Part shown: one piece after another, positions 7,247 through 60,785 of the stretch | How positions within the stretch are numbered: position 1 is the stretch's first letter | Layout of the letters: every line of letters starts with the position of its first letter | Origin: Clostridiales bacterium | GTDB lineage: Bacteria > Bacillota > Clostridia > Christensenellales > CAG-314 | Assembly (NCBI GenBank): GCA_022508345.1 | Contig: JAFLVK010000001.1 | Coordinates: 164,371-228,370 of the forward strand | DNA: 64,000 bases | Direction: 5' to 3' | Translations under genes and position numbers: made by a program | The notes under the pieces: model-generated | The model's database searches: none | What the model was told of the DNA's origin: nothing | What the model saw: only the letters and a program-made list of their open reading frames with translations

Positions 7247-7275
7247 ATTGTACCAAAACACAACCACGCCGTCAA
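7247..7275 (-). promoter_or_regulatory. Sigma-70-type promoter for thyA (TTGACG-17-TACAAT with TGn extension)
   Basis: Minus strand reads TTGACG gcgtggttgtgttttgg TACAAT. Spacing is 17 nt, and it lies about 37 nt upstream of the thyA ATG. Confidence 0.5.
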
Positions 7276-7351
7276 ATGTAAATGTAGGTGTATCACATTA
7301 AAATTTAGTTTTTAAACAGTGGTTTGCAATATAAATTTCTATATATCAGCA

Positions 7352-7381
7352 TTGACTAACAGTTTATAATTATGTTATAAT
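7352..7381 (+). promoter_or_regulatory. Candidate sigma-70 promoter (TTGACT-18-TATAAT) facing the XRE/membrane gene
   Basis: TTGACT aacagtttataattatgt TATAAT on the + strand, about 277 nt upstream of ATG 7658. A second extended -10 (TGgTAAAAT, 7589-7597) lies closer to the gene. Confidence 0.35.
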
Positions 7382-7657
7382 TTAAGCCAACAAAAAGCTT
7401 TGCAACAAAAAGTTGCAAGAGTGTTTGTTATAACAAAAACATTCTCAACTGATAGTTGACGAAGACAATTTCGCCTTTAAAAGTAGCAAAAAATGCGCCA
7501 AAAACTATCCAAAAAGTTGATTTTCAACTAAATGTAGACAAATACAACTTTTGGTTGCAAGGAAACTATACACAAACCGCGCCGTTTTTGGTAAAATGTT
7601 TGTACGTGGCGAGCGACTGTGTTGCTCCGCCCAAAATACTTATTTAAGGAAGGACTT

Positions 7658-44834: not shown

Positions 44835-47327
44835 ATGGAACACAGACACGAAATTATCAGCTTCCCCGATAACTCTCCAATTAAAGTATTCATTCACAAG
44901 CTTGGCGACGTCAACATGCATTGGCATCGCTCACTGGAATTGCTGTATATTGTCAAGGGAGAAGTCAAAATTACCGAAGGGGGTAATTTATACACGCTTA
45001 AGGATGACGATATAATTTTAATCAATTCGAAGGTTCCGCATTCTTTACATGCCGAAAACGCCACCATGATAGCGGCACAAATTAAAATCGACCTCCTCTC
45101 TGTCATTCCCGACAAGATAAAAAACTATTTTTTCAATTGCGTTTCCATATCTGACGACAAAGACAAATATACACCGATAAAACAGTGTCTTGCAAATCTG
45201 CTAAAGTTCAACGTGGAAAGCAGCGGAGATTATTCCAATCTTATCAATATTTCGTTGTGTTACAGGCTGATGTACGAATTGTACGTCAATTTCGGCAATC
45301 CGGAAAACAAGATTGCCGGCAATCAAAATGAGCAACTTTCACGGCTCAATGTCCTGCTGGAATATATCAATAAAAATTATTCCGACGATTTATCACTGGA
45401 AAGCCTTGCAGGAATAGTTAATGTAACCCCGTCGTATCTTTCGAAATCGTTTAAACTTTTGATGGGCATGACTGTGAGTGATTACATCAAAAGTATAAGA
45501 CTGCATCAAGCTGCTATCTTATTGAGCACTACTAATCTCAGTTCGGAAATTATTTGTGAAAAATGCGGTTTCCCCAACACGCATTCCTTTTTGTCCGCTT
45601 TCAAGGAGAAGTATTCTACCCTTCCAAGCAAATGGAGAAAAGAAAATAAAAGTCGGGCCAATGTCATAGACGACCCCGAACAGACAATTGGTTATAACGC
45701 AACCAACTCCGCTATTCTCTATAGCAGCGTCACTGACTTTATAGACAAATATGCCAATGCCACTATTTCTACAGGCGAAAGTTCACAAGTAAACTTTCTG
45801 CAAAATGAAATTACCGTTGTTGACGACACTAGCACTAAGCTGACCAGCACGGAAAGATATGTACTCGGCGTAAGTCGCGCAAAAGAATTACTGTTTGCGC
45901 CGGTACGGGAAATGATAACAGAGCTACAGCGAGAGATAGGGTTTAAATATGTTAAAATGCACTCCATTTTTGATGACGACATGATGGTATACAGTGAGTT
46001 TGACGGTACGCCACATTACAACTTCAACTTGATTGACAGCGTTTACGACTTTTTGCTCTCCATCAATTTGAAGCCGTATGTACAGCTTTCCTTTATGCCA
46101 TCTGCTTTGGCTACGCAAAAAGATAAGACCACATTTTATGCCAAAGTAATAGTATCCACACCCAAAGACATCAACAAATGGAATGCATTGGTAGACAAAT
46201 TTGTACAACATCTTATTGCGCGTTATGGCAAAGAAGAAGTTGAAAGCTGGCCCTTTGCCGTTTGGAATGAGCCCTTTACTTCGCAAAATATTTTTGGGTT
46301 TGAAAATAGAGAAGACTATTATTCGCTGTACATCAATTCATATAACACAATAAAAAATATAGACGCCAATATTAAAGTCGGCGGTCCGTCGCACTTTGCA
46401 GCATATGGGAAAAATAACCACCTGCTTGCGGAGTTTTTAACAGTAATGAAAGAACGCGACTGTACCCCGGATTTCATCGATTTGCACTATTACGACACTG
46501 ATATGTCGCGTCTTTATTTAGATAAAAACGGAATGAAAATTTCCACGCAGCTTTCACCTCGCCCGGGAACTTTCGGTGAAGAGATGACAAAACTACAAGC
46601 CGAACTTGCTGCTGTAGGCTTCGGAGACATTCCAATTTATCTAACAGAATGGAATTCCACAACGTCACATAGAGATTTGCTATCCGACACTTGCTTTAAA
46701 TCGTCTTACATTGTCAAAAATGTGCTTGAAACGTACGGTATGTTACAGGCAAGCGGATATTGGCTTTTAACGGATTTGCACGAAGAGAGCTATCTTGAAG
46801 ACAAATTATTCCACGGTGGATTAGGGATGTTTACTGTTAACGGCATCAAGAAGCCGGCGTATTTTGCGTATCGTTTCCTATCGATTCTTGGCGATGAACT
46901 GATAACAAAGGGTGACGGGTATTTCGTTACTAAACGCAATGACAGCTATGTAATTCTATTATACAATTACGCCCACTACTCCTCTGCATATTCCGAAGAG
47001 GTAGGAATAAACACAAACTATACAGACAGGTATTCTGTATTCCCCGAAAGTGGCATCAAGGAATTTTGTTTCAATTTTCCCAATATCAAAGGAACACACT
47101 TGGCTGTACACCACATTATGAACAGAAAGCACGGATCTGCCTTTGACAATTTTATAAACATGGGCGCAGTTGAACCACTTTCAAAAGAAGAAACAGTGTG
47201 GCTAAAACAAATTACCGAACCGCAAATAAAAAAGGAGCTAATCAAAGCTCCTGTCAATATTCGCATTACTCTTCAACCCTTTGAAATAAGATTGATTGAA
47301 ATAATCCCAACCATAGACTCACAATAA
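44835..47327 (+). CDS. AraC-family regulator fused to a GH39 (beta-xylosidase-like) glycoside hydrolase domain
   Basis: N-terminal cupin (VFIHKLGDVNMHWHRSLELLYIV). AraC HTH pair (VTPSYLSKSFK...GFPNTHSFLSAFKEKY). Then a TIM-barrel region with FAVWNEPF (acid/base) and IYLTEWNS (nucleophile). Start set at ATG 44835 after AAAGGAA. Confidence 0.85.
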   Translation: MEHRHEIISFPDNSPIKVFIHKLGDVNMHWHRSLELLYIVKGEVKITEGGNLYTLKDDDIILINSKVPHSLHAENATMIAAQIKIDLLSVIPDKIKNYFFNCVSISDDKDKYTPIKQCLANLLKFNVESSGDYSNLINISLCYRLMYELYVNFGNPENKIAGNQNEQLSRLNVLLEYINKNYSDDLSLESLAGIVNVTPSYLSKSFKLLMGMTVSDYIKSIRLHQAAILLSTTNLSSEIICEKCGFPNTHSFLSAFKEKYSTLPSKWRKENKSRANVIDDPEQTIGYNATNSAILYSSVTDFIDKYANATISTGESSQVNFLQNEITVVDDTSTKLTSTERYVLGVSRAKELLFAPVREMITELQREIGFKYVKMHSIFDDDMMVYSEFDGTPHYNFNLIDSVYDFLLSINLKPYVQLSFMPSALATQKDKTTFYAKVIVSTPKDINKWNALVDKFVQHLIARYGKEEVESWPFAVWNEPFTSQNIFGFENREDYYSLYINSYNTIKNIDANIKVGGPSHFAAYGKNNHLLAEFLTVMKERDCTPDFIDLHYYDTDMSRLYLDKNGMKISTQLSPRPGTFGEEMTKLQAELAAVGFGDIPIYLTEWNSTTSHRDLLSDTCFKSSYIVKNVLETYGMLQASGYWLLTDLHEESYLEDKLFHGGLGMFTVNGIKKPAYFAYRFLSILGDELITKGDGYFVTKRNDSYVILLYNYAHYSSAYSEEVGINTNYTDRYSVFPESGIKEFCFNFPNIKGTHLAVHHIMNRKHGSAFDNFINMGAVEPLSKEETVWLKQITEPQIKKELIKAPVNIRITLQPFEIRLIEIIPTIDSQ

Positions 47328-47374: not shown

Positions 47375-47402
47375 CTGCCCAAAACCGCAATGTTTTGGGC
47401 AG
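47375..47402 (+). terminator. Rho-independent terminator of the AraC-GH39 gene; last core feature before the island
   Basis: ctgcccaaaa / ttttgggcag 10-bp stem with an 8-nt loop, followed by a T-rich tail. Confidence 0.7.
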
Positions 47403-47450
47403 TTCAATTTCTCCATTTACTACCACTATTCCTTAATCCCATATCACAAA

Positions 47451-47725
47451 GTCAGAAGCATTTTGACCCAAAATCCAATTTAGGAAATCTTAACCATTTT
47501 CCCTCTTTTTCTCGCTTAAAATACGACGAATTCGTGCTAAAACTAGGATTTTTTAACCACTTAACATCTTTTCTCGTTTGCATATCGGATTTTTCCCCAA
47601 TTTTCCCAAACACGGAACTGGAATCCTTTACATCCGGTGGAATATAACATATACCCCCATCGAATTCCCCAGATTAAAAAGTTGCAAAAATTACATTTCC
47701 CCAATTTTCAATAAATTGGGGAAAA
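47451..47725. repeat. Direct repeat copy A (~275 bp) at the core/island junction, 3' of module 1
   Basis: Aligns with 52978-53250. The core 47531-47725 versus 53058-53250 looks roughly 80 percent identical by eye (not computed). It contains TTTCCCCAATTT twice direct (47592-47603, 47696-47707) and once inverted (47713-47724). The last pair forms a 12-bp hairpin followed by a U-run on the minus strand. Confidence 0.8.
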
Positions 47726-47823
47726 TAGATATCATGATGTATTGAACTGATTTTCATTGGAATTAAAAATAAACATTTATGATTGACCGCTAGTCAATAA
47801 ACTTGGGGACTTCCTATAATTAT

Positions 47824-49719
47824 TTATTTTGTTTTACCATACTGTTTCATCACATCTCTTAGACATATCTCATTCACTTTATCAAAAAAATTATGATCAA
47901 ACATGCTACCGACAAAATAGTTCTCTATACGCAGTTTATATCGCCCGATACTCATTTGATTTTCTTGATAAACTATTTTATCTCTATAATTAAAAATACA
48001 GAAATCACAATCATAGAATTTAAAGAGTTTATAGATATTTACTTCACCCTCGAACACCTTTTTTAGTTTGCGTATCTTAACATAATCTTCAAATAATGTC
48101 CCTCTGTCAAATGGCAAAATAAAATTGTCAAAATCCATGATATACACATCATCCTTTACAATAACACCATCTACTGTTCCAGAGTGTATAACAATGCTCT
48201 TTATACTATAAAATTTTTTGCTTTTAATTTTTATTCTTTTTTTCTCAAATGCTTCAAAAACGAAGTTCATATTGTTTTTGTAAAAAGAAACAATTCGATT
48301 CAACTGCTTTACATCATCTAAATATTTGACTGATTCTCTTGTTTCTAACTCATGTCCAGTTCTACTTTTACATTCGCAAAAAACGAAAGTATCATTCATA
48401 TAAAACACGGCATCACATTCATATTCTTCCCTATCTACATGATGATGCATCTGCACATACGGAGTTTTGGTTAAATCTAAAAATCTATATAAATTTTTTT
48501 CAAAATTATGTCCTTTGATATCAATATTAATATCTTGACTGTTAAACCTCGAAATGACAGACCTCGCTGCGTGAATCCATTTTGTAATAGAAAGACAAAT
48601 GGCATACTTATTGTTTATTGGAATAAATGGATAATCGTATAAATCTGTCGCACCTTTGCGTAGTATCATGTTATCAAAAACGATTGTCGCACTCTCTACA
48701 GGAATTCCATTTTTTACAAATATATTAATCCATTGCTTTTTAGTCTTACAATAAATGTGATTAGATAGAATTTTTGAAAAAGACACAATATCTTTGTTAG
48801 AGTTATTTTGGCTTATTTTATAAATAATCACATAGGCTTTAATCCAATATTTTATTTTAACACTTTTTATTTCGATGTCTGCACTTTCGCAGTAAAAGTG
48901 CTTATCCAATATTTTTTGACTAGTGTACTCCATCACTTTGGGAGTCAAATTTCTAAACGGTTTAATATAAAAATAATATTCATGAAGCGCGTTATTTTCA
49001 TAGATAAAACTCATTATTTTTTCTTTTATATACGGACTCGTGTACTGTGTGAGCCTTATCTTATCAAGTATAGATAGGTGAACTTCTTTATCATTTATTA
49101 TTTCTAAACCATAAATGTTCTTTTTCCAATAATTATATTTTTCATGCCACATGGAAACGTTGTATGAGTTAATTAAATACTCCATCACGCACCTTTTATA
49201 TTTAAATGGTGACGACAAAGCATCTGCGTCATTTAAACTACACATAAACTTACTATCGCTATACACTTTTTCATTGTATATTAAGGACTTTATTGCTTGT
49301 ATGGTAAGTTCCGCATTTTTTTCATATGCCGTGACGCTGTCTGCATGTTTTCCCTTGAAAAAGTCTTTTGCTTTAGCAGACTCGTATTTTTCAACATTAT
49401 ATGATCCCCAATAAAGTAAAAGCGGCAAAATTAAGTTGGGTGGGACAGCATCGATTTTGCTTTGCAACCTTGCGCATTCCTCAAATATAGCATTTATTAT
49501 GTTTATTTCCTCGAGATAAGCTATAGCTTCTTTTATTTGAAGTTTCTCCAAAATGTCATCAACCAACTTATTGAATTTATGAGTCCCACGAACATCAACT
49601 AAAAAGTCACAACTCTTTAATTCTTTAATATTCTCAAGGAAATTTCCATTTTGAATTAAGTTACATAACTCTTCCGTATCACTATTATCAATAATTCTAT
49701 CTACAGTTTTTTTATTCAT
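47824..49719 (-). CDS. Uncharacterised 631-aa protein with PD-(D/E)xK nuclease-like core
   Basis: AT-rich ORF with a 14-nt gap to the upstream gene. GHNFEKNLYRFL...EYECDAVFYMNDTFVFCECKS fits E...D...ExK. The N-terminal ~400 aa has no motif I recognise. Confidence 0.7.
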   Translation of the reverse strand: MNKKTVDRIIDNSDTEELCNLIQNGNFLENIKELKSCDFLVDVRGTHKFNKLVDDILEKLQIKEAIAYLEEINIINAIFEECARLQSKIDAVPPNLILPLLLYWGSYNVEKYESAKAKDFFKGKHADSVTAYEKNAELTIQAIKSLIYNEKVYSDSKFMCSLNDADALSSPFKYKRCVMEYLINSYNVSMWHEKYNYWKKNIYGLEIINDKEVHLSILDKIRLTQYTSPYIKEKIMSFIYENNALHEYYFYIKPFRNLTPKVMEYTSQKILDKHFYCESADIEIKSVKIKYWIKAYVIIYKISQNNSNKDIVSFSKILSNHIYCKTKKQWINIFVKNGIPVESATIVFDNMILRKGATDLYDYPFIPINNKYAICLSITKWIHAARSVISRFNSQDINIDIKGHNFEKNLYRFLDLTKTPYVQMHHHVDREEYECDAVFYMNDTFVFCECKSRTGHELETRESVKYLDDVKQLNRIVSFYKNNMNFVFEAFEKKRIKIKSKKFYSIKSIVIHSGTVDGVIVKDDVYIMDFDNFILPFDRGTLFEDYVKIRKLKKVFEGEVNIYKLFKFYDCDFCIFNYRDKIVYQENQMSIGRYKLRIENYFVGSMFDHNFFDKVNEICLRDVMKQYGKTK

Positions 49720-49733
49720 TCAATATACCCATA

Positions 49734-50987
49734 TTAATTTAAAGCTGAATTATGGACAATAATCGTCTTAGAACTAATGATTTCTCTCGGTTCTGCGAGT
49801 CTTACAATCTCATACTCAAAGCTGGCCACACCTATTTTTTGTTGATATACAGTGAGATTATTTTTCTTTGCAATTTGCATGAGTCGTTCTTTATTCTCTT
49901 TAGATATATCTTTCCCCATATAAATCCCTGTGGCAAAAGGAAACCATATTAAACCCGGCTCTTCTCCGCCGATTACAATTCTCCATTCTTGCTCATTCGA
50001 ATACTTCGGGTTTTTCATAAGCGTTTGCAGATGTAGTTTTGTTGCCATATCTGGATCATGGGAGGTGTTCTTTATTTCGAACAATGTATCATGGTATTGT
50101 AGAAATTGAAATTTATATGAGTTAAATTTCGGTCTTCGTTCCGTATAAAATACAGGTAATAATCCTTTCAACGCATATACTGAACTTTCAACATCCAGCA
50201 AATCGAATCTTATTCCTTGAGTAAAATCATATCTAATACAAAAGCCACCATAATTGTCCGCATATTCTTCCCACATTTTAGGGTTGTTATTAGTTTCAGT
50301 CAAACTGCAAACATATCTTGCTTTTCGATTTAAATCGATTGTAGACGAACACCATTCCTCACAGTGTGCCTTATACCAATCAAGCAATCCCTGTGCTCTG
50401 CCGCGCTGTGATATTTCTTGATCGAACAGCACAATTTTTTTTACAATTTTCTCCCGTTGTTCTATCGGATACTTTTTCTTTATATATTTTTGTGTTCTCT
50501 TAACATTTAATACTAAATCGTCATTATAACAATGTGCAAAAAATATGTTTCTTACTTCTTCTGGCGTTAATGAATTTTCGTCTTTAGAAAGGTTATCTTC
50601 ATTGTTGACATAAATGTAGGAGGCAAAAACAAACCATTTTGCAAGCCTTTTTATTTTACTTTTCGGCAGGTTCTTGATTGAAAAAGGTAGTCTACAATCG
50701 TATGGATCCATAAATTGTTCAGCCGAAGATACCCAAATACTGTTATCTTCTAACGCTTTGAAATTGTTCGCATTGCAACTTCGATATTTAAACAAACACT
50801 TCGGAACCGTCTTCAGGTGATCCAAAATATATCCTAAATCATCAAACTTTTTTCGCTGCTCGGATATTTTCAGCGAAGCCCAAATAGAATTCGGATCTTC
50901 TGACATTTCTCTAAAATACTCTTCAAGCAACATGTTCCTTATGTATCGTTCAGTTTTTTTGAGTCGATATTTTTGTTTTAACTTCAT
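49734..50987 (-). CDS. DUF2971-like protein
   Basis: CLFKYRSCNANNFKALEDNSIWVSSAEQFMDPYDCRLPF reproduces the DUF2971 N-terminal signature (L.KYRs...l....lw.s....fNDP.E), with a later EQEWRIVIG block. RBS is AAGGAGAA. Confidence 0.7.
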   Translation of the reverse strand: MKLKQKYRLKKTERYIRNMLLEEYFREMSEDPNSIWASLKISEQRKKFDDLGYILDHLKTVPKCLFKYRSCNANNFKALEDNSIWVSSAEQFMDPYDCRLPFSIKNLPKSKIKRLAKWFVFASYIYVNNEDNLSKDENSLTPEEVRNIFFAHCYNDDLVLNVKRTQKYIKKKYPIEQREKIVKKIVLFDQEISQRGRAQGLLDWYKAHCEEWCSSTIDLNRKARYVCSLTETNNNPKMWEEYADNYGGFCIRYDFTQGIRFDLLDVESSVYALKGLLPVFYTERRPKFNSYKFQFLQYHDTLFEIKNTSHDPDMATKLHLQTLMKNPKYSNEQEWRIVIGGEEPGLIWFPFATGIYMGKDISKENKERLMQIAKKNNLTVYQQKIGVASFEYEIVRLAEPREIISSKTIIVHNSALN

Positions 50988-51191
50988 TTATTCTCCTTAG
51001 CATTTCGCTCTCACATTTTTATTATTTTGGTCTATAAATAATGAATGAGTGATATACTTATTGCCATGTGCTTGGATGTGATATTCCCATAATAAATTTT
51101 TTTTACCAATTCTCAAAATGTTCACCACGCATTCTAATAACAATTTATTTTACTGCTATCTCATCGCTTTCGAATTTCATAATATTGTCGA

Positions 51192-51512
51192 CTACCTTCC
51201 ACTTCTACTGCCTACAATATTTTTCTTTTTGTTATTATGGTAATGTCCGTGAAATTGTATAGACTTGCTTTTATTCGTTTTATTGAGACTAATATATGTA
51301 GTAATATTAGTTGTTTTACTAACCGGTTGTCTCATTTCTACTTTTGCAATGTCAATTTCAACTTTGTTGCGATGTATCTCCTGGTTAATTTGCCAATATT
51401 TACTCGGTTCATAAAATTCACTTACATTAGATCTTTTACTACGTAAGCGCTGAATATTTTTATCTGCAATTCTAATTCTCTCTTGTGGTGTTTTATTTTT
51501 AAATATAAACAT
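51192..51512 (-). CDS. Small basic protein (106 aa), unknown function
   Basis: Start moved to ATG 51512 (MFIFKNKTPQERIRI), which has AAGGTGGA 8 nt upstream and removes the overlap with the RNase III-like gene. Lys/Arg/Asn-rich. No homology recognised. Confidence 0.55.
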   Translation of the reverse strand: MFIFKNKTPQERIRIADKNIQRLRSKRSNVSEFYEPSKYWQINQEIHRNKVEIDIAKVEMRQPVSKTTNITTYISLNKTNKSKSIQFHGHYHNNKKKNIVGSRSGR

Positions 51513-51531
51513 TTCTAAATTCCACCTTAAA

Positions 51532-52515
51532 TTATTTCTCATCTTGTTCGAGTACATATAACAGCATTGAGTATGCTGATGCCTTTTTAGCTTCTTTCTT
51601 TAGAGGCGCTGTCTCCCTAAAGCAAATATCATATTCTTCTATACTACATGTACAAGTCCAAAAAGTATTGTTGTGCACGTCCAATTGTTCTTCGAATAAA
51701 TACTCGGGCATCGAAAAATATTCCTTTTGCGCCAATTCCTGCAATTGATTTATTGCATTGTCTAACGATGGTTCGTCGATTTCATCTGCCATAGAGTACA
51801 TCCTCCCACTATCTTCTAGATAGCGATAAACTTGTTTTGCTGCCTCCATTCGGGCTTCATTCTTTGTCATTCCATCGCCTGAAAATTTGTAGCCATCAAC
51901 ATTTACTGTACAATGATAATAATCCCACGTAAACTTAAATCTATAATTCGGCGCCTTGCCAAATTCCTTTTGATGCCACTGTTGAACTAAAGCGACATAG
52001 TTATTGTCCTCAGTGAAACTATTTTGAATATAATGATCAATATCCAACATAAGACCGACTACTTCTTGTATGATTTCAAGATCCCAATTACAGTCCAGTG
52101 TTACAGCTCCTACGATAGCTTCAAATAAATCCTCTTTAACATGAGTATCCTCGGCAACATTTTGCTTAATATCGCCGTTTCCCATTATCAAATATTTTTG
52201 AAATCCGAACAACTCAGTTCTGCTGGCGAGCATTTTGCTTTTCACAAGCCGTTTCTTGATTTCGGTCAGCTTTCCTTCAGTGCGTTTTGAGATAAATTCT
52301 TCTTCCTCAGTAAATTCGCCATAATACTCTATAAGTGTTTTCATTACGGCAATATCAAGAGCTTTATCTCCAATAAACTCCAATACCTCATTATCTTCAC
52401 TTTCTGGATGCTCTTGCGAATAGGATTTTCTGATAAACGCCTGCTGTAACAACATTTTGTTATCAAACTGATATCCAATTTGTTTTTCAATTTCTCTTAG
52501 TTCTTTTTTTGTCAC
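51532..52515 (-). CDS. RNase III-like ribonuclease with two C-terminal dsRBD-like domains
   Basis: RNase III signature NEVLEFIGDKALD and second acidic cluster KEDLFEAIVGAVTLD. dsRBD-like 1 is NYRFKF...GDGMTKNEARMEAAKQVYRYL. dsRBD-like 2 is MPEYLFEE...TAPLKKEAKKASAYSMLLYVL. GTG start with GGAGG 10 nt upstream. Confidence 0.8.
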   Translation of the reverse strand: MTKKELREIEKQIGYQFDNKMLLQQAFIRKSYSQEHPESEDNEVLEFIGDKALDIAVMKTLIEYYGEFTEEEEFISKRTEGKLTEIKKRLVKSKMLASRTELFGFQKYLIMGNGDIKQNVAEDTHVKEDLFEAIVGAVTLDCNWDLEIIQEVVGLMLDIDHYIQNSFTEDNNYVALVQQWHQKEFGKAPNYRFKFTWDYYHCTVNVDGYKFSGDGMTKNEARMEAAKQVYRYLEDSGRMYSMADEIDEPSLDNAINQLQELAQKEYFSMPEYLFEEQLDVHNNTFWTCTCSIEEYDICFRETAPLKKEAKKASAYSMLLYVLEQDEK

Positions 52516-52736
52516 AAAAAAATACCTCCGTTGTAAAATTTACACGAAGGTATAATAATAGCCTAACGATAAGAGTATAGTATTCCCCTCTAAATTTCGT
52601 TAGGCACCATATATTAAAATAAATTACATAAATCATTTTTATTTGAATTAAGCCACTGCCAACCCAATTCAAATAACCCTATTTTATGTTCAGCATTTTA
52701 ATCTATTATACCCTCGGGTTAGATTTATTTTAGCAT

Positions 52737-52765
52737 CTCTTAACTAATTTGTCAATAGATGCATC
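52737..52765 (-). promoter_or_regulatory. Near-consensus promoter (TTGACA-17-TAAAAT) for module 1, giving a ~215-nt leader
   Basis: Minus strand reads TTGACA aattagttaagagatgc TAAAAT. The leader contains hairpins atttgaatt/aattcaaat (52643-52676) and gcctaacga/tcgttaggc (52561-52604). Confidence 0.55.
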
Positions 52766-52977
52766 AAAATTATATGTTGTTTTACGTAAATTCAAAACAA
52801 CTTGAACTAACGACATAATATTCATCATTGTTGCTTTTACATAATTAAGACTACCATTTACATAGCAATCGAACAATAAGTTCATTACCGTTCAATGCTG
52901 CCACTATGTTTTTTGTTGTTATGCAAAATTTCTTTAGAGATTTTGATACCATATTTTGTTATATATTGTCGAAAAAT

Positions 52978-53250
52978 GTCAGAAGCCTTGACATCATAAA
53001 TTCGATTTTGAATATTTTAACCATTTGACATCATTTTGCACAAAAAAGACGGTAAACTCGTGATAAAATTAGGATTTTTTAACCACCTTACCAATTTTCT
53101 CGTTTGCACAACGGATTTTTCCCCAATTTTCCCATATACGGAACAGGAATCCTTTACATCATTTAAGATGTAACATATACCTTATCGGATTTGCCAGATT
53201 AAAAAGCAGCAAAAAATAACTTTCCCCAATTTATTGAGAAATGGGGAAAG
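52978..53250. repeat. Direct repeat copy B (~273 bp), 3' of module 2 and upstream of module 1
   Basis: Aligns with 47451-47725. The hairpin tttccccaattt...aaatggggaaa (53221-53249) starts 7 nt after the stop of 53256-53852 and is followed by UUAUUUUUU on the minus strand. Confidence 0.8.
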
Positions 53251-53255
53251 TTTGA

Positions 53256-53852
53256 TTAGTTGTTATCTTCAATATTCTTATAATGTGCTTTGTATACCAC
53301 GGTATTACCCGTGACGTTATCCAACCGTACATTTCTAAATTTTTTATATCTAATTTTGTTATCTATTAATGTAAAAACTACGGTAACATAAGTCTCTGTC
53401 TCTCTTATGGCCGGAAAATTCGGAAATATAAAATAACCCATAATTGCCGAATATGCCGGAACTACAAGCGGCACCTGTAGTCGTAATGATTTACTATCCT
53501 GTGGTATGCCGCTTCTCTGACCAAACGTTAGATTAAACGGTGCGATATCATAAATTGAACCTACTGTTTCAGCATGATACTGCATATTTTCATATTCTAT
53601 GTAAATATCTGCAATTGTACCACCCACCGAAGAATTATTGTAAAAACTTAATCTTAAATCCACCAAAGTTTTAAAACCCACACCTTCAAATACAGCATCT
53701 GCATATGACAATGTGCCAAAATTCTTCTTTAGCCTAACACCTATTTTAGGTTTTGAATGCCGAAAGTGTATAATACAAGAAACGACTGCTGCAATTGCTG
53801 AAACTGCAGCACAAATCGAAGAAATCATTGCTATTAACTCTGACGTTTTCAT
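53256..53852 (-). CDS. N-terminally membrane-anchored 198-aa protein, unknown function (last gene of module 2)
   Basis: One strong TM helix (LIAMISSICAAVSAIAAVVSCII) followed by a beta-rich soluble domain. RBS AAGAGG. Confidence 0.65.
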   Translation of the reverse strand: MKTSELIAMISSICAAVSAIAAVVSCIIHFRHSKPKIGVRLKKNFGTLSYADAVFEGVGFKTLVDLRLSFYNNSSVGGTIADIYIEYENMQYHAETVGSIYDIAPFNLTFGQRSGIPQDSKSLRLQVPLVVPAYSAIMGYFIFPNFPAIRETETYVTVVFTLIDNKIRYKKFRNVRLDNVTGNTVVYKAHYKNIEDNN

Positions 53853-53903: not shown

Positions 53904-55355
53904 TTAACTGTTATTGATTTCATCGTACTTTTTTAATAAAAAGTCACTAATTGTATTGTCGATTTTCCTTTGTTGCAATAATTCAATTATTTCCTCATCC
54001 GTTATATGTATTATCCAGCCACGCCCATCCTTTACTGTGTCCATTTCACATTGAATAAATTTTTGCGGATCATCCAAATATCTACAGCAAATAATACCGA
54101 ATTTTCCTCTATTTGCAGAAAATCTCCCTGACATTTGATCCAATTCTGGGTTTGCAATGTCTTTAGAATAATTCTTACACTCTACCATAATTAAACTGCA
54201 TGGTACATTATAGGTCGTACCTAAATAATGTAAGAATCCACTCTCAGCAATATTATTGAACACAATATCTATGCGCTTTCTGCCGTCATTTATCTCCTTC
54301 TCGATTTTGGGATGAGCAATATATGGATAGAAAAGCAACTCTAAAATTCCGCTAATCAGTCGATGATACCTTGTCGCATGCTCACTTCCCGGTGGTATAG
54401 ATTTAAGCGCCTCTATAAGATTATCGATAATTTCTTCTATATCTTCATCGCTTATATCATCTAATTCTCCATATGATATCTTTTGAATAATCTCATTTTT
54501 AAATTTGCTCAGCACATCAGGATTTTCTTTTGTAAAACGTGATAACCAATTTTTTGTTAAAAATTCGCCACGACTTTCGTAATCTGCTACAATGTCTTTC
54601 TTACAAACCTTAGCATTTTTTAGTGATCCATTTTTGTCGTATGTTTTTCGAACCAAATGCGTGTCCTCTTTTAAGTTTTTCTCTTTTAAAAATTCAAGCA
54701 CATATTGATTCAAGAATTCCTGTGCGTTGTAATATTTTGCGTCAGAAACTAAATTTTTAGGAAACAATAGATATCTTTTCCCATCTATTACCAGTGTTTC
54801 GTGGTGTCCTCTATCCCAACGTGTAGCAGTTTTATTCCAATAGTAGCCAACCTCAGCATTAGTTAACTTTATACCCAATAACTCACACTGTTCCTTAGTG
54901 TACTTAATAAGTGGATATTTTATAATATTAGCAACCATATCAGAAACCTTGTCCTTATCCACACCTTCGACGAACAATCTTAAATCTTCAATATGTTCTG
55001 CTACCCCATCATTTATTGCGCAACTTTTCTTGATTGCTTCAAAAATCGTTCGCGCGTTTACTCGTCCAACGCCTTTACCCGCCGGCTTGCCACGACTCAT
55101 TCCTAAGCATATCTCATTAACTTCTCCCAAATGATTAAAAAGCTCAAACGCACGTTCTTCATCATATTGTAATAAGTATAAAAATCTATTAAAAAAGGTT
55201 TCTATGTACTCATTACATTCAGCTAAAAAAGCATCTTCCTTCCGGGAAATATAATAAGGATCGAAAAACATATATGTGTCGAGTTCTATTTCATAGTCAT
55301 AAAAATCCAATTCCAGTTGAGACTTCTTAAGCCCTAATTTCTCACTTATTTTCAT
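53904..55355 (-). CDS. 483-aa protein with novel N-terminal region and C-terminal restriction-endonuclease-fold (Mrr/NERD-like) domain
   Basis: C-terminus EHATRYHRLISGILE...GRKRIDIVFNN...SLIMVECKNYSKDIANPELDQMSGRF fits E...D...ExK. Start set at ATG 55355 after GGAGGAATT. Confidence 0.7.
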   Translation of the reverse strand: MKISEKLGLKKSQLELDFYDYEIELDTYMFFDPYYISRKEDAFLAECNEYIETFFNRFLYLLQYDEERAFELFNHLGEVNEICLGMSRGKPAGKGVGRVNARTIFEAIKKSCAINDGVAEHIEDLRLFVEGVDKDKVSDMVANIIKYPLIKYTKEQCELLGIKLTNAEVGYYWNKTATRWDRGHHETLVIDGKRYLLFPKNLVSDAKYYNAQEFLNQYVLEFLKEKNLKEDTHLVRKTYDKNGSLKNAKVCKKDIVADYESRGEFLTKNWLSRFTKENPDVLSKFKNEIIQKISYGELDDISDEDIEEIIDNLIEALKSIPPGSEHATRYHRLISGILELLFYPYIAHPKIEKEINDGRKRIDIVFNNIAESGFLHYLGTTYNVPCSLIMVECKNYSKDIANPELDQMSGRFSANRGKFGIICCRYLDDPQKFIQCEMDTVKDGRGWIIHITDEEIIELLQQRKIDNTISDFLLKKYDEINNS

Positions 55356-55368
55356 AATTCCTCCTAAA

Positions 55369-57171
55369 TTATAATATATCAGCAATAGTAATTTTTATAT
55401 ATTCGCGCAAATACTTAAATGGGAATGGCACAACTGTTAACTGTCCGTTGCGAACAAATGTAACCGACATTAATGGCAGCAAATCATCAAACATAACAGT
55501 TGCATTTTTGTGCGCTTCTATTAATCTAATATTAGCTGCTCGATTAATTTTTCTCTTCATTCCTTCTCCGATTTCGCCGACAAAATAATATTGTATGCCA
55601 TCAATTTTAAACATCTTAATATCTAAGCACGCTGATAGTAGTTTTTCTCGCATTGCTTTACCACGCAGCTTTGTATTTCCGCTTTCAAGTTCTGCTTTGA
55701 TACTATCAATCATCGGAATAGTAAACCAATCGGTATCTTTAATAATGTTAATTTCATTTTTCGAGTTTTTTATAATACCGTTAATCTTTTCCGATCTTAA
55801 TTTGGCATCCTCAAATATTTCAACACATTCGCTATATTCTGTTAAGTTAAACAAATCTAACTTCGTTTCTCTAAATTCAAATGTACCATCTGGATGTATA
55901 TTCATAAAGAAAGATCTATCCTCATGCGTCACGCCAAAAGAAATGTTTTCATTGTAACCAAGCTTGTCCCATTCAAACAAAGAAATGCGTTTTGTCTTGA
56001 TGTCGTCCTTAATTAACAATTCGTTAACTACCGTTTTAATCGCAAATTCAGCACAGTCGACGAAATCTTCCAATGTGATATGCTGAATAACCGCATCGTT
56101 ATATTCTTCATAAGCATCCTCATTTCCGCCATAATACTCGGCATTATGAATAACGCATATATTTAAACTTTGTTTGTTGATTTTTTTGCTTAAGTTTGCA
56201 TTTATACTGTATGTATCATATAAAAGTTGTTGGATTTCCGAACAAAATCTTTTTGAGTATTCGTCAGATATTTTATCAACAATGTTTATTGACTTGGAAG
56301 TCAAAATCGTCTCGATACGTTTTTTATTTTCTCGTTTTTCCACATGTGAATAATCAAGTGAAGAATACTCCTCTATCTTTTCGAGCTTTATTTGCGCATA
56401 TTTTGCATGCTTGCCATTAAACTCATTTAAAACTGAATACAAAACGCCTAGCTTACAACAATTAAATTTGTCGATGTCTTCCAAATTTAAAAATGGAATT
56501 TCAATCTTTTTGCCTTCTATTTGTCTTAGTATAAAGGCACCACCTTTATCATCTTTCAACTTGCGTTTTAATGTATAATGTGCTGAAATGACATATTGTG
56601 GATATTCGTCAAATTTTCGCTTTTCGAACACTATATGATTGCGTAATTTAATTGATGTAAAAGTATGAACATTGAACAATAAATGAAAGTCTTTCGTTAT
56701 TCTAATGTCTAGGCAAGGAATTTGCCATATGATTTCATTAGTTTTTTCCTTAGATTTTTTCAACCATTGGGGATGAAAACAGTATAAGTGTCCAGTTAAG
56801 TTATTAAACTTCAAGTTTGTACTCTCAAAATTTCCCATGCCATTTAACAATAATTGCAACGAGATATAATGAGGAAGTTGAGAAAAATTGAGTTGTTGTA
56901 TAGACAAGTTTTCAGATCCTTCGCAACTGTTTAGGATTAGGAGTAATGAATGTCTGTTTTCTTCATTATGTTTCATTAATACATATAACGATTTGCCTTT
57001 TTCAAAATACAATGAATAAACAGAATTTCCAAGGGATGGTGCATCTAATATAAATGCACCACTCCGAATATAATTCTCAGATGTTGATATTTGAAAAACA
57101 TCAAATTGTTTATTTAATTCTGTTATATTCAAAGAGTAGTTTACTCTATTAGTACTAATTGGAAAACTCAT
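55369..57171 (-). CDS. 600-aa protein, possible catalytically inactive Argonaute/PIWI-like protein
   Basis: No catalytic motif found. The C-terminal TVVPFPFKYLREYIK resembles the PIWI C-terminal [ST]VP.P..YA motif. LNICVIHN...YEEYNDAVIQHI resembles a MID strand-helix. The gene overlaps the helicase gene by 17 nt and has AAGGAG 8 nt upstream of its ATG. The fold assignment is inference only. Confidence 0.6.
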   Translation of the reverse strand: MSFPISTNRVNYSLNITELNKQFDVFQISTSENYIRSGAFILDAPSLGNSVYSLYFEKGKSLYVLMKHNEENRHSLLLILNSCEGSENLSIQQLNFSQLPHYISLQLLLNGMGNFESTNLKFNNLTGHLYCFHPQWLKKSKEKTNEIIWQIPCLDIRITKDFHLLFNVHTFTSIKLRNHIVFEKRKFDEYPQYVISAHYTLKRKLKDDKGGAFILRQIEGKKIEIPFLNLEDIDKFNCCKLGVLYSVLNEFNGKHAKYAQIKLEKIEEYSSLDYSHVEKRENKKRIETILTSKSINIVDKISDEYSKRFCSEIQQLLYDTYSINANLSKKINKQSLNICVIHNAEYYGGNEDAYEEYNDAVIQHITLEDFVDCAEFAIKTVVNELLIKDDIKTKRISLFEWDKLGYNENISFGVTHEDRSFFMNIHPDGTFEFRETKLDLFNLTEYSECVEIFEDAKLRSEKINGIIKNSKNEINIIKDTDWFTIPMIDSIKAELESGNTKLRGKAMREKLLSACLDIKMFKIDGIQYYFVGEIGEGMKRKINRAANIRLIEAHKNATVMFDDLLPLMSVTFVRNGQLTVVPFPFKYLREYIKITIADIL

Positions 57172-60100
57172 GAATCAAACTCCTTATTTCTCTAAATGCC
57201 TTTACACTGACCTGCGGTTTTTTATAACCGAAAAACAAACATGGAACATCTACAATTGTGACTTCGCCGGAACTCCGAACAATTGGACGTTCTTCTTTGG
57301 TCAAAATGTTAATAGTCAAAACGCATTTGCATCCACATTTTTTTGCTTTACAAATTATTTTTGATCTCATTTTTTCTTTATCTATAGTCATAGATTCATG
57401 CCAGTGTTTAAAATCAACATATATAGGTGCGTCTTTAACCTTAAAATCAAAACACTCAAATAAGTCATTATCGTTTATTTCATCTAGGTCTATGTCAAAA
57501 TAACGCTTTAAGAGATACCTGCCAACGAATTCACCCAATGCGCCTTTATATATGTTGTTATATAAGGCTGGGGACACAATAAAATTACCCGGTTTAAATG
57601 TGGTTGCATAGTGTTTTTCATTAAATTGATCTTTTACACCTTCTATTTCCATTAAAACATTTAGTCGCGCATCGTGGGCTGACACTTCATAGTTAAAATG
57701 ACTTCTTTGCTGGAATGAAACTAATATGTTATTAAAATCTGATTCTTGCTGGTAAAATATGCGATCTTGTACTTGCGGCAATTTTACATACAGCTGATTT
57801 ATCATAAAATTTTTATCCATATCAATTTCATTTCTAGAGAATGTTGGATTTCGTAACACCATTTCTCGCATTTCCTTCCAATCCTTCATGCTATCATCAG
57901 TCCAATCCTCTCGCAAAATGTTCTGTATAAATTTATTAACACGAACAGATAGTAAAGAGGCCGTATTTTCGGCGATATTGCTATTGTTGATACATGATGT
58001 TGATTGCACCTTACTCATCAGTGCCAAAAACTCAGGATTAAACAAATTACTATTAATAATTGTTTTATCAATATTTTCATGCAATCTACTATCTGCTAGA
58101 ATATAAATTTTTCTTTTCTTCTGATTGGTTCTGCAGATACGACCTATTGCTTGAATTATGGTCCGTGTGCAAAGCAGTTTAACATCCTGCAGGTCATATA
58201 AATTTTTAACCCATTCTGAACGTGCATGACCAGTCATGTAGCATCTAAAAGCCTTTTTTATATGGGAGAACGCTTCCGTCATTGAAAGCTGTCCATTCTG
58301 CTGTAAAAACTCAACATGGAAAATGTATTTGGCAAAGTCCTCCTCTATCAAATGTTCGTCTAGTCGAACCAATAAATTTGTTGGTTTGTCTAAATATATA
58401 GCATCAAAATCTTTCTCGTTTCTAGAATCAAAATCATTTACACCAATTAGCCGTTTTCTATCACCTTGCGGTATAGGATATTGTAAGTTTTGTCCAGCTC
58501 CAATAGTTTGATAAACGGAGATGACGAATAATCTTTCCCCTTTTGCTAAACGCGAAATAATATGTTCTTTTCGAGCATCGTATTCATCTCCATCCAACTG
58601 AATAACTGTATCCTCTTGAAAAACCTCTTTTTTGTTTTCTTCCCATATGTGTTTGAAAATTTTCAACAAAAAATCAATATCAAGCATTGCATTATTTTTT
58701 CGAGGATGTCTGGTTAATACACATAAGAATGATTGAATATCATCATGTTGAACGAAAAATTTAAAAGCGGATGCTACTCGACAGTATCTTTTCTTATCGT
58801 AATTATTACTGTCATCGGAGAACATTATTTCTAAATTTTCATAAACATCATAAACGCGTTCTGTCTTCAAAACTTCTTGCCATGCAGATAGACCATAATT
58901 TGCCTCTGAATTTTCACCAATGATGGACACATCAATATCTATATTGTCATAGCCTTTTGTAGCAATTGCATATTGATCGCTTAACCGCTTCAGATCTTCT
59001 TGCGAGACCTTGCAAAATGCAGTCTTCATTTTTGCTTGTAAATAATCCATGTCATAATTTCCTATATTCGTTGGAATTGTAGCCGTTGCTGAAATACCAA
59101 TTACCTTGGCACGCTCGCAAATTTTCAACAATATTTTTTCTGGAGTATTTTGAAAAGAATACATCATTATTTTAGACTGCATATCATGAAAGGTGTCGTT
59201 CTCAAATGCGTAATATCTGAAACCCCGTTCATAAAACGACAGGTCATAGTTTGCTCCCTCAATGTTGGTAGACCTTTTGGGCGATGCTGATAGTATTTGT
59301 AGTGTAAGGTATTCTATCGAATCATTTGACAATCTGAATTCTGACAAAACCGATCTTATTGCTGATTCCATCGAAAAATCGTCTTCGCCAGTTTTATGTC
59401 TCTCCCGCTTCGTTTCCAGATAATTTATTGCAAGAATGCTGACGCCAATTTGAAAATACGTAATAAATCCGCGCAATTTGCCAAGCATAACATGGATATT
59501 TTGCGAATCATGCTGCGGCTTTTTATCCGCAAACTTTATTTCATTTAGTCTTAACTTTTCATTACTGTATGTATAGATGAAAGATTTATTACCATTCAAT
59601 ATCGAATGAAATTGGTGATCTTGAAATAAAAAATTCTTATTTTGATCTTCTGCTTCCACACTAGTTCTATGACTAAATTTTAAAGAAAAATCTTTGTATA
59701 ATACCTCTGCTTTTGACCTTATATCATCAATAATACCATCAAGTGACTGATCGGCGAATCTACTAGCTTGTCTCTGTCGCGATGCGGTTGTTAAGACAGA
59801 GGGAAATTCAGTGGTTTGCAAACCAGAATAAATTTCTCTAAACAATTCAATATAATCAATTTTATCTCGTAACCCATTTTCTATAATATTGTTTAAAATC
59901 GTTGCCTTTGTTGCGTCAAACTCATCTATAAATATTACTGCATCTTTAATTATGTCTGAATTGTAAAACATATATGACGGTTCAACAATGGTTGAATTTC
60001 TAGAAAGAAATTTATCCATGCTCATAAAAATAATTTGTTTGCTTTGTGTAAATACAGCAGGATATAACCTGCCTAACCATTGCCAACGCTCACTTGTTTT

Positions 60101-60625
60101 TATGGCATAAAGCTTATCTTTAACGGATGTAAATTCTTTATTAAGATACGCTTGTATTAAGCCTCGGAATGCGGGCTCTGTTTTTTCGCGAAGATTTTTC
60201 TCGATGGTCTCCACTAATTGTTTAGTCGTATTATCAGATTTTTGTCTTTTGATAAAAAGAAGATCTTGTTTAAGTGCTCTATATTCGTCTGTTTTTGTTA
60301 TTTCAGATGGCATACTTTTTTCTAATTTGGCATTCCAGTTGGTTAATACAGTATCAATATTGGAATCCAAAAAGACAAATTTTTCATCAAAAAGCACTTG
60401 TTCATTACGTCTAGCAAACCTTTCTTTTAATTCATCAATCGGCAGGTTCTTTTTTTGCGTGGTAATAAAAAACACTTTTTTCTTATCAAACTTATGCGAC
60501 AGCACTGCATCACAAATATAGTCTAAAACAGAATGTGTTTTACCAAATCCTGTTGGCATATCTATTAGTAATAACCCGTTCGATTTGTCATTATTCTCGC
60601 AGTATTTTTTTATGATTTGATACAT
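57155..60625 (-). CDS. SF2 (DinG/DdmD-like) helicase with C-terminal PD-(D/E)xK nuclease-like domain
   Basis: Motif I LIDMPTGFGKTH, II VIFIDEFDAT, III VIGISATATIP, V-like QTIGAGQNL and VI IIQAIGRICR. The C-terminus is GALGEFVGRYLL...ECFDFKV...IYVDFKHW. Start set at ATG 60625 after GAGGTG. Confidence 0.85.
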   Translation of the reverse strand: MYQIIKKYCENNDKSNGLLLIDMPTGFGKTHSVLDYICDAVLSHKFDKKKVFFITTQKKNLPIDELKERFARRNEQVLFDEKFVFLDSNIDTVLTNWNAKLEKSMPSEITKTDEYRALKQDLLFIKRQKSDNTTKQLVETIEKNLREKTEPAFRGLIQAYLNKEFTSVKDKLYAIKTSERWQWLGRLYPAVFTQSKQIIFMSMDKFLSRNSTIVEPSYMFYNSDIIKDAVIFIDEFDATKATILNNIIENGLRDKIDYIELFREIYSGLQTTEFPSVLTTASRQRQASRFADQSLDGIIDDIRSKAEVLYKDFSLKFSHRTSVEAEDQNKNFLFQDHQFHSILNGNKSFIYTYSNEKLRLNEIKFADKKPQHDSQNIHVMLGKLRGFITYFQIGVSILAINYLETKRERHKTGEDDFSMESAIRSVLSEFRLSNDSIEYLTLQILSASPKRSTNIEGANYDLSFYERGFRYYAFENDTFHDMQSKIMMYSFQNTPEKILLKICERAKVIGISATATIPTNIGNYDMDYLQAKMKTAFCKVSQEDLKRLSDQYAIATKGYDNIDIDVSIIGENSEANYGLSAWQEVLKTERVYDVYENLEIMFSDDSNNYDKKRYCRVASAFKFFVQHDDIQSFLCVLTRHPRKNNAMLDIDFLLKIFKHIWEENKKEVFQEDTVIQLDGDEYDARKEHIISRLAKGERLFVISVYQTIGAGQNLQYPIPQGDRKRLIGVNDFDSRNEKDFDAIYLDKPTNLLVRLDEHLIEEDFAKYIFHVEFLQQNGQLSMTEAFSHIKKAFRCYMTGHARSEWVKNLYDLQDVKLLCTRTIIQAIGRICRTNQKKRKIYILADSRLHENIDKTIINSNLFNPEFLALMSKVQSTSCINNSNIAENTASLLSVRVNKFIQNILREDWTDDSMKDWKEMREMVLRNPTFSRNEIDMDKNFMINQLYVKLPQVQDRIFYQQESDFNNILVSFQQRSHFNYEVSAHDARLNVLMEIEGVKDQFNEKHYATTFKPGNFIVSPALYNNIYKGALGEFVGRYLLKRYFDIDLDEINDNDLFECFDFKVKDAPIYVDFKHWHESMTIDKEKMRSKIICKAKKCGCKCVLTINILTKEERPIVRSSGEVTIVDVPCLFFGYKKPQVSVKAFREIRSLIHEFSN

Positions 60626-60785
60626 AAAACACACCTCATCTTATTTGTACAAAAATTGTTCTACCATCGATTTGGGTTTCCTCTCATAAGAGTGAAAAAT
60701 AATTATCAGGAATTCCCTTCGATAAAAGTAGATATATAATATACCTATACAAATATATTTTTGTTAAGCACAATTAAAAATATTA

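Follow-up and report, generated by a model that had tools for sequence, protein, structure and literature searches.

A stretch of 64,000 nucleotides from a Clostridiales bacterium (GenBank assembly GCA_022508345.1, contig JAFLVK010000001.1, positions 164,371 to 228,370 of the forward strand) was analysed as a whole and is called the window here. It carries two copies of a non-coding element of about 285 bp (280-285 bp), which we name R. R_A and R_B bracket a 5.5-kb cassette of anti-phage genes in the window, and a third copy, R_C, lies in another species, represented by the metagenome-assembled genome (MAG) 'Clostridiales bacterium HAN105'. R is a conserved, discrete non-coding element found where modules meet in a polymorphic defence island without a recombinase gene, and the module to its right takes its intrinsic terminator from the gene-proximal end of R. 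The hosts of R are uncultured Christensenellales-like Clostridia, and on the sequences at hand the family so far appears to be confined to them. The reading that we prefer, tentatively and at somewhat below even confidence, is that R is a junction element restricted to this lineage, which ends one module and would act as a recombination patch where cassettes are gained or lost.

Two direct repeats around one module

The original prediction, made from the letters of the window alone, had placed direct repeats of about 275 bp behind the last genes of two successive modules, and these repeats are real. With blastn, 47451-47725 aligns to 52978-53249 in the same orientation at 77.5% identity over 275 nt (E 2e-54). 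A repeat search divides the match into three collinear blocks of 138, 66 and 63 nt, which are 83%, 77% and 71% identical; this confirms the weaker similarity that had been remarked by eye for the left ~75 bp. A pairwise alignment has two indels between the copies, 1 nt each.

The edges of R were set by comparison with R_C. They put R_A, the copy at the border of core and island, at 47447-47731 (nhmmer with a three-copy profile, E 7e-87), and R_B at 52975-53254, between module 2 on its right and module 1 on its left. To the left of these edges, similarity between the two sites is not significant against an empirical null drawn from real island segments (P 0.03-0.16). A supposed remnant of the core GH39 gene's terminator to the left of R_B had seemed plausible by eye, had given P ~0.01-0.05 against shuffles and was dropped on that same null.

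Copies were counted in 83 kb of this genome, that is the window and 19 kb to its right on the same contig (taken from ENA ERZ27293309 k141_281813), and in 8 kb of HAN105. It had been proposed to look beyond the 64 kb for a third copy. No further copy, direct or inverted, is present in the 83 kb, and the third copy was found in HAN105 instead. The other module junctions of the island are without R, both by blastn and by the three-copy profile. Both copies lie within the 25-kb island, and the 57 kb of core have none, a distribution with a chance of ~0.09.

A third copy in a second species

R_C was discovered only with a two-block pattern, and most exact-seed scans missed it; TTTTCTCGTTTGCANNNCGGATTTTTCCCCA can serve as a search pattern for R. 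With nhmmer, R_C is found at positions 7275-7540 of the HAN105 sequence (L187; E 2e-59). The 8-kb HAN105 locus opens with an ortholog of the RNase III gene of module 1 together with 255 bp of its promoter and leader (72% identity in nucleotides, 68% in amino acids). R_C lies upstream of this ortholog in the same orientation as in the window, and the element is followed on the right by the 3' end of another minus-strand gene, which has a terminator hairpin of its own. In the second species, then, R is again the neighbour of the RNase III module and again stands between two minus-strand modules, on the 3' side of one and the 5' side of the other, and the proposal that R marks module boundaries is borne out there.

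Between the HAN105 RNase III promoter region and R_C there is an insert of ~6 kb, with a degraded DDE transposase and a six-gene operon at a GC content of 0.46. It is bracketed by direct repeats of 91 bp that are 89% identical (L187 1135-1225 and 7102-7192). With the insert removed, R_C would stand ~190 bp from the RNase III promoter region, compared with 204 bp for R_B in the window. The operon in the insert encodes a His phosphatase, an alpha/beta hydrolase, a zeta-toxin-like kinase, a NUDIX protein, a 491-aa protein and an AP_endonuc_2 protein.

The flanks to the left and to the right of R are unrelated in all three copies, and R is therefore a discrete unit with sharp edges. The pairwise identities are near equal, at 77.5% for R_A and R_B, 78.6% for R_A and R_C (over 285 nt) and 77.9% for R_B and R_C (over 244 nt). 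R_A and R_B are therefore no recent duplication in place, but as old as the split from HAN105. Duplicated attachment sites had been offered as one explanation in the original prediction; a fresh duplication would be expected as near-identical copies, and does not agree with the 77% seen here. R is also better conserved (78%) than the adjoining RNase III gene (72% in nucleotides), while the adjacent spacers have no detectable similarity. Among the informative sites there is a mild mosaic pattern, in that R_C goes with R_A at each of the first 15 and the rest divide 25:19 (max-chi-square P 0.03). Mosaicism of this kind is as expected if crossovers fall inside R.

These comparisons bear on a simpler account, in which R_A and R_B would be the trace of an old insertion in place, with a long target duplication of ordinary spacer that has been decaying neutrally and has no function. 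Insertions of restriction-modification (RM) and other defence genes with long target duplications have been described by Nobusato, Furuta and Kobayashi, with direct repeats of 46-423 bp around inserts of <20 kb (PMC2853133). The geometry here fits that class: repeats longer than 30 bp, a defence insert below 20 kb with no integrase, transposase or other mobility gene, and an insert GC below that of the genome. In the known cases, however, the repeats duplicate the recipient's own target at 93-100% identity (PMC2853133), whereas R_A and R_B are 77% identical, no closer to each other than either is to R_C, as old as a species split, and present again in another species. R also outlasts the adjoining coding gene while the neighbouring spacers do not, it is conserved in blocks, and the differences between R_A and R_B are clustered. 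A neutrally decaying target duplication is disfavoured, and we consider it very improbable.

Terminator, motif and conserved body

The last direct and inverted pair of motifs in each repeat had been read as the minus-strand terminator of the preceding module, and a hairpin with a T-run tail is indeed present in both R_A and R_B. In R_A, a terminator scan finds the hairpin of module 1 at 47696-47724 on the minus strand, with a 12-bp stem and the tail TGTAATTTTT (DNA fold -11.6 kcal/mol, z -4.65), ~100 nt past the stop of the 631-aa open reading frame (ORF). In R_B the hairpin is at 53221-53249, also on the minus strand, with a 9-11 bp stem and the tail GTTATTTTTT (DNA fold -10.7 kcal/mol, z -5.12), and it starts 6 nt past the stop of the 198-aa ORF. 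Both qualify as intrinsic terminators, and they account for ~30 of the 285 bp. Beyond the terminator, R holds ~245 bp of conserved, non-coding sequence that has no promoter. In R_C the element's own hairpin has decayed, and a separate hairpin at L187 7597-7620 stands in its place. The terminator hairpin is therefore dispensable to R, and the constraint lies on the body.

The most conserved core of R is at 47569-47608, where TTTTCTCGTTTGCAnnnCGGATTTTTCCCCA is invariant in all three copies; further invariant blocks include ACGGAAC, AATCCTTTACATC and AACATATA. Within the core, a 23-nt block at 47586-47608 (CGGATTTTTCCCCAATTTTCCCA) is identical in R_A and R_B (53112-53134). It is the longest block that these two copies share exactly, and it is not at an edge of R. 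The differences between R_A and R_B are clustered, with 6 identical runs of at least 12 nt where 2.4 are expected (P 0.005), which points to constraint. R also has an internal sub-repeat of ~37 bp (score 18, against a null of 12 +/- 1.9). At the outer end there is a small, weak hairpin (47451-47467 in R_A, near 52976-52994 in R_B and L187 7280-7294 in R_C; DNA folds of -1.6, -3.4 and -3.0 kcal/mol, z -1.0 to -2.6), which is unrelated to the hairpin at the other end.

Each copy was said to hold the motif TTTCCCCAATTT twice direct and once inverted. This is exact for R_A, while R_B has the two direct motifs and an imperfect inverted arm, AAATGGGGAAA. At no more than one mismatch, the 64 kb contain 5 matches to the motif where 0.64 are expected, a number that none of 100 shuffles reaches. 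In R_C the inverted arm is gone and the mid-element direct motif is degenerate (TTTCCCCATTCT), so that all that is common to both direct sites across the copies is TTTCCCCA. The triplicated motif, proposed as a possible recombinase or transposase binding site, is thus not a conserved feature of R.

The original prediction had also suggested, as its alternative, that the repeat is a 3' regulatory RNA. More broadly, R could be a cis-regulatory or non-coding RNA part of the RNase III-like module, for example a transcript or antisense pair processed by the RNase III protein with its double-stranded RNA-binding domains (dsRBDs), or an upstream operator array. In favour, R and the RNase III module occur linked in both species, the window has R on each side of the module, and a TTGAC hexamer resembling a -35 element is found at the outer end of all three copies. 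Against this, the copies lack a conserved -10 element and have no promoter-like site in common. Rfam has no match in the window at gathering score; the best sub-threshold scores for R are 18-25 bits where 37-153 are needed, and they differ between copies. Covariation is zero or negative in the three-copy consensus folds (terms of +0.47 for the minus strand and +4 for the plus strand), and single-copy folds are weak (z-scores of -1.4 to -2.1) and unlike between copies. The conserved part of R lies 3' of the terminator, and in HAN105 a 6-kb insert parts R from the module. A 3' regulatory RNA thus finds no support, and the broader RNA or operator account seems to us distinctly unlikely.

R was also considered as a peptide or type I toxin gene, and rejected. 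The copies share a frame of ~38 codons, but it has no Shine-Dalgarno sequence, differs at ~4:1 non-synonymous to synonymous, shows no 3-periodicity and has lost its stop in R_C. The same frame speaks as little for a role of R within the RNase III module.

A strain-variable defence island

R_A stands exactly where the core genome gives way to the island, as had been claimed. At ~47 kb the GC content falls from 0.40-0.48 to 0.29-0.34, and the terminator of the last core gene (47375-47402, plus strand, by terminator scan) lies 45 nt before R_A. To the left, the core carries a sugar ABC transporter, a glycoside hydrolase family 3 (GH3) gene, an esterase and the AraC-GH39 gene, at a GC content of 0.40-0.53. 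Rightward from R_A, GC is 0.29-0.37 and all genes are on the minus strand. The island is rich in defence genes and runs from 47.4 kb to ~72.8 kb (window-equivalent), a length of ~25 kb.

At its far edge the island differs between siblings. Contigs from two other samples (L183 and L185) are 96% identical to the window strain through the core acetyltransferase and 109-aa genes, and diverge 108 bp past the stop of the 109-aa gene (~72.8 kb window-equivalent; L182 10438). Where the window strain has tRNA-Gln and an FMN reductase, they carry a PD-(D/E)XK PDC-S26-like gene. Neither the island nor the 10 kb on each side of it has an integrase, resolvase or transposase, and the genes called from ~37.9 kb to 83 kb-equivalent include no Phage_integrase-type protein; a recombinase, for which the original prediction proposed to look beyond the 64 kb, is not among them. 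The divergence of the siblings at the far edge, together with the lack of a recombinase gene, therefore shows a strain-variable, recombinase-less defence hotspot of ~25 kb, with R_A at one end, and the prediction of a hotspot holds.

Module 1, the bracketed cassette, is at 47824-52515 on the minus strand and encodes an RNase III with two dsRBDs (327 aa), a 106-121 aa ORF, a DUF2971/PDC-S31 protein (417 aa) and a 631-aa protein that has no family match. This extra RNase III paralog at 51532-52515, with its two dsRBD stretches, scores 152 bits against TIGR02191, under the 166-bit cutoff. Upstream of the module, at 52516-52770 on the minus strand, are a strong promoter (TTGACA-17-TGnTAAAAT, 52755->52727) and a leader of ~210 nt, both conserved with HAN105; the leader may be regulatory. 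The spacer from this promoter region to R_B (52771-52974, 204 bp) has no similarity to L187.

To the right of R_B, the first gene is a called ORF for a 198-aa membrane protein (53256-53852, minus strand), the last gene before R_B in the direction of transcription. It is followed by PDC-M36A/DUF8370 and a pair of DdmE-like and DdmD-like genes; then a radical-SAM/PDC-M30-like group, a type IIG RM enzyme and an HKD-Snf2 helicase; and then a 74-aa ORF, the FMN reductase and tRNA-Gln. The pair of DdmD-like (1156-1159 aa) and DdmE-like (600 aa) proteins adjoins PDC-M36A/DUF8370 at 53904-60634. The tRNA-Gln(CTG) gene (L003 680-754, ~72.5 kb window-equivalent) is in the variable region, 211 bp from its edge, and has no integrase beside it.

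The AraC-GH39 gene on the core side (44835-47327) encodes a single 830-aa protein in which an AraC-type regulator, with a cupin domain and a helix-turn-helix (HTH) domain, is fused to a GH39 glycoside hydrolase. The fusion is conserved in related Clostridia (22 loci). Its best ortholog, at 74% identity, is from 'uncultured Christensenella sp.' mouse-gut MAGs.

Searches for R elsewhere

If R belonged to this chromosomal site or to one of its neighbours, it might be met again with them. The orthologous GH39 loci of 9 related species have no R, and in the closest of these the next gene starts 37 bp on. Homologs of the 198-aa protein (~41% identity) lie in prophage-like loci with HTH_3 and integrase genes beside them (L175 and L176), and those of the 631-aa protein (48-58% identity) occur singly in other defence islands; neither set of loci has R. 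As far as these nearest comparisons show, R appears to travel neither with its neighbours nor with its site.

Wider scans found chance matches. A 23-mer scan of genome contigs had 0 matches, and a 17-mer scan had at least 119, all of them chance by nhmmer. Viral contigs gave 15 chance matches, and 0 with a 31-mer. A 20-mer scan of the JGI metagenomes gave 9 chance matches, including one of low complexity (L168), and blastn against plasmid and phage collections found no R.

A rodent-gut metagenome run, X1, has no R and no R-like contig at 80% identity or more, at very low coverage. It holds only the RNase III part of module 1 (51301-52858) at 97-100% identity, and its contig leaves the window sequence at 51301. 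This comparison suggests that the RNase III gene occurs elsewhere with a different downstream partner.

One contig of the same strain from another sample (Logan contig L028, SRR13619862) ends at 47608, exactly where the 23-nt block common to R_A and R_B also ends. The end could come from a hybrid left by deletion of module 1, or from chance. It was not kept as evidence of polymorphism, as the same assembly also breaks at unrelated places (L030).

The counts bear on whether R is tied to the island at all. R could be a genome-wide interspersed intergenic repeat of the REP, BOX, ERIC or miniature inverted-repeat transposable element (MITE) kind, two copies of which flank module 1 by chance, as in Furuta's 'chance insertion between repeated sequences'. 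Identities of ~78% are those of old dispersed repeats, and 2 copies in 83 kb fit a density of ~1 per 40 kb. The copies sit in intergenic positions next to terminators and have small hairpins at both ends, and one of them is in a second species. The Firmicutes repeats BOX, RUP, EFAR and bcr1 are likewise of this size class, intergenic and terminator-adjoining, with diverged copies. Those repeats, however, come in tens to hundreds of copies, with folds that are stable and conserved or with terminal inverted repeats, whereas R has island copies only within the 83 kb, with none in the 57 kb of core, and no stable shared fold. It also has neither terminal inverted repeats nor a consistent target duplication, the X1 run, of very low coverage, offers no R-like contig, and random dispersal does not predict that R_C should again lie beside the RNase III module. 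A dispersed repeat is thus an unlikely explanation.

How modules may be joined at R

Under the reading that we prefer, the body of R would be the patch where cassette DNA is joined. A donor fragment, circular or linear, which carries its own R would recombine with the resident R. For a circle, a single Campbell-type (homeologous) crossover would be enough; linear DNA would need one homologous end and one illegitimate end. The product would be a module with R on both sides, one of donor and one of recipient type, as is seen around the 5.5-kb RNase III/DUF2971/631-aa module, and the reverse reaction would delete the module. The insert would be left with a donor-type and a recipient-type copy, and the repeats would therefore be 77% identical and not ~100%. 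The agent could be RecA acting on identities of 23 nt, or else an unlinked site-specific recombinase. The 91-bp, 89%-identical repeats at the HAN105 insert look like the outcome of an event of the same style, in the same lineage of islands.

Several points weigh against this. No excised, empty or hybrid form was seen, and in the data at hand only one strain carries this side of the island. The longest identical run, 23 nt at 77% overall identity, is marginal for RecA-type recombination, and no enzyme is identified in the 83 kb. R could yet be a genome-wide repeat, since the sequence read comprises 83 kb from this genome and 8 kb from HAN105. Exact-seed scans of the JGI metagenomes, IMG/VR and other GTDB species gave no further R, and the words 'family' and 'constraint' rest on three copies.

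Some of the same features would also suit a dedicated enzyme. R could be a site-specific recombination site, similar to att, attC or the sites of cis-mobilizable elements (CIMEs), for a tyrosine or serine recombinase encoded elsewhere. Each module would end in R, and motifs of the TTTCCCCA type together with phased GGAWWTTT sub-repeats would be putative protein-binding sites. R is discrete, keeps one orientation with sharp edges in three contexts, and always lies at the 3' end of a module; it is conserved block-wise, has the internal ~37-bp sub-repeat, and is enriched in the motif. Yet the 83 kb hold no recombinase, no partner sites and no inverted copies, R_C has lost the inverted arm and has a degenerate mid-element direct motif, and other module junctions of the island are without R. 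We think a site-specific site rather unlikely.

The comparison with integrons shows both sides of this. As with attC sites, a repeat follows the last gene of each cassette in one orientation, and in clusters of attC sites lacking integrases (CALINs) no adjacent integrase is needed. But attC sites are 57-141 bp where R is 285 bp, and R does not have the R''/L''-L'/R' palindromic architecture. The cassettes here are multi-gene operons with their own promoters, and no IntI was found. CIME accretion is alike in that direct repeats enclose a segment that has no recombinase, with another island adjoining at the same hotspot. It is unlike in that the composite has a recombinase, which is not seen here. 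The att repeats of CIMEs also share an identical core; the 23-nt block CGGATTTTTCCCCAATTTTCCCA could be one, but it is not at an edge of R. A bolder version is that R is the site of an undescribed cassette system of Clostridia, in which whole defence operons ending in R would be moved by a dedicated enzyme encoded elsewhere; to this we give a slim chance.

Other known elements were compared with R and rejected. As an attC site it is too long at 280-285 bp, no paired RYYYAAC/GTTRRRY cores are seen by eye at its ends, and its only strong palindrome is the 29-nt terminator. As a MITE or the end of an insertion sequence (IS) it fails because neither of its ends, GTCAGAAGC... and ...GGGGAAAATAG, is an inverted copy of the other and no target duplication is consistent; ATATCA flanks R_A only, with nothing comparable at R_B or R_C. 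A Tn7-like end was dismissed for want of inverted partner motifs in the 83 kb and of tnsABC genes, and a dif/Xer site for want of a good dif match by eye and of a switch in GC skew. A group II intron or an IS200/IS605 end finds no Rfam hit, and the end hairpins are mutually unrelated.

What R may mean for defence islands

The island resembles the core defence hotspots (cDHS) of P. aeruginosa, the E. coli hotspots and the minimal mobile elements of Neisseria, which are strain-variable defence islands between core genes without mobility genes. At recombinase-less hotspots exchange is presumed to proceed by homologous recombination in the flanking core genes. To our knowledge, a conserved non-coding junction element inside the island is no part of the descriptions of such hotspots.

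How defence islands free of mobility genes gain and lose single systems is an open question, and the usual answer is recombination in the core genes on either side. If the preferred reading is true, R would be a concrete and testable handle on exchange inside the island. A dedicated cassette system, should that slimmer chance prove right, would mean an integron-like logic applied to defence modules of operon size. If R is confirmed as a junction element, scans for such elements could delimit defence cassettes in uncultured gut Clostridia, including the RNase III/DUF2971/631-aa module.

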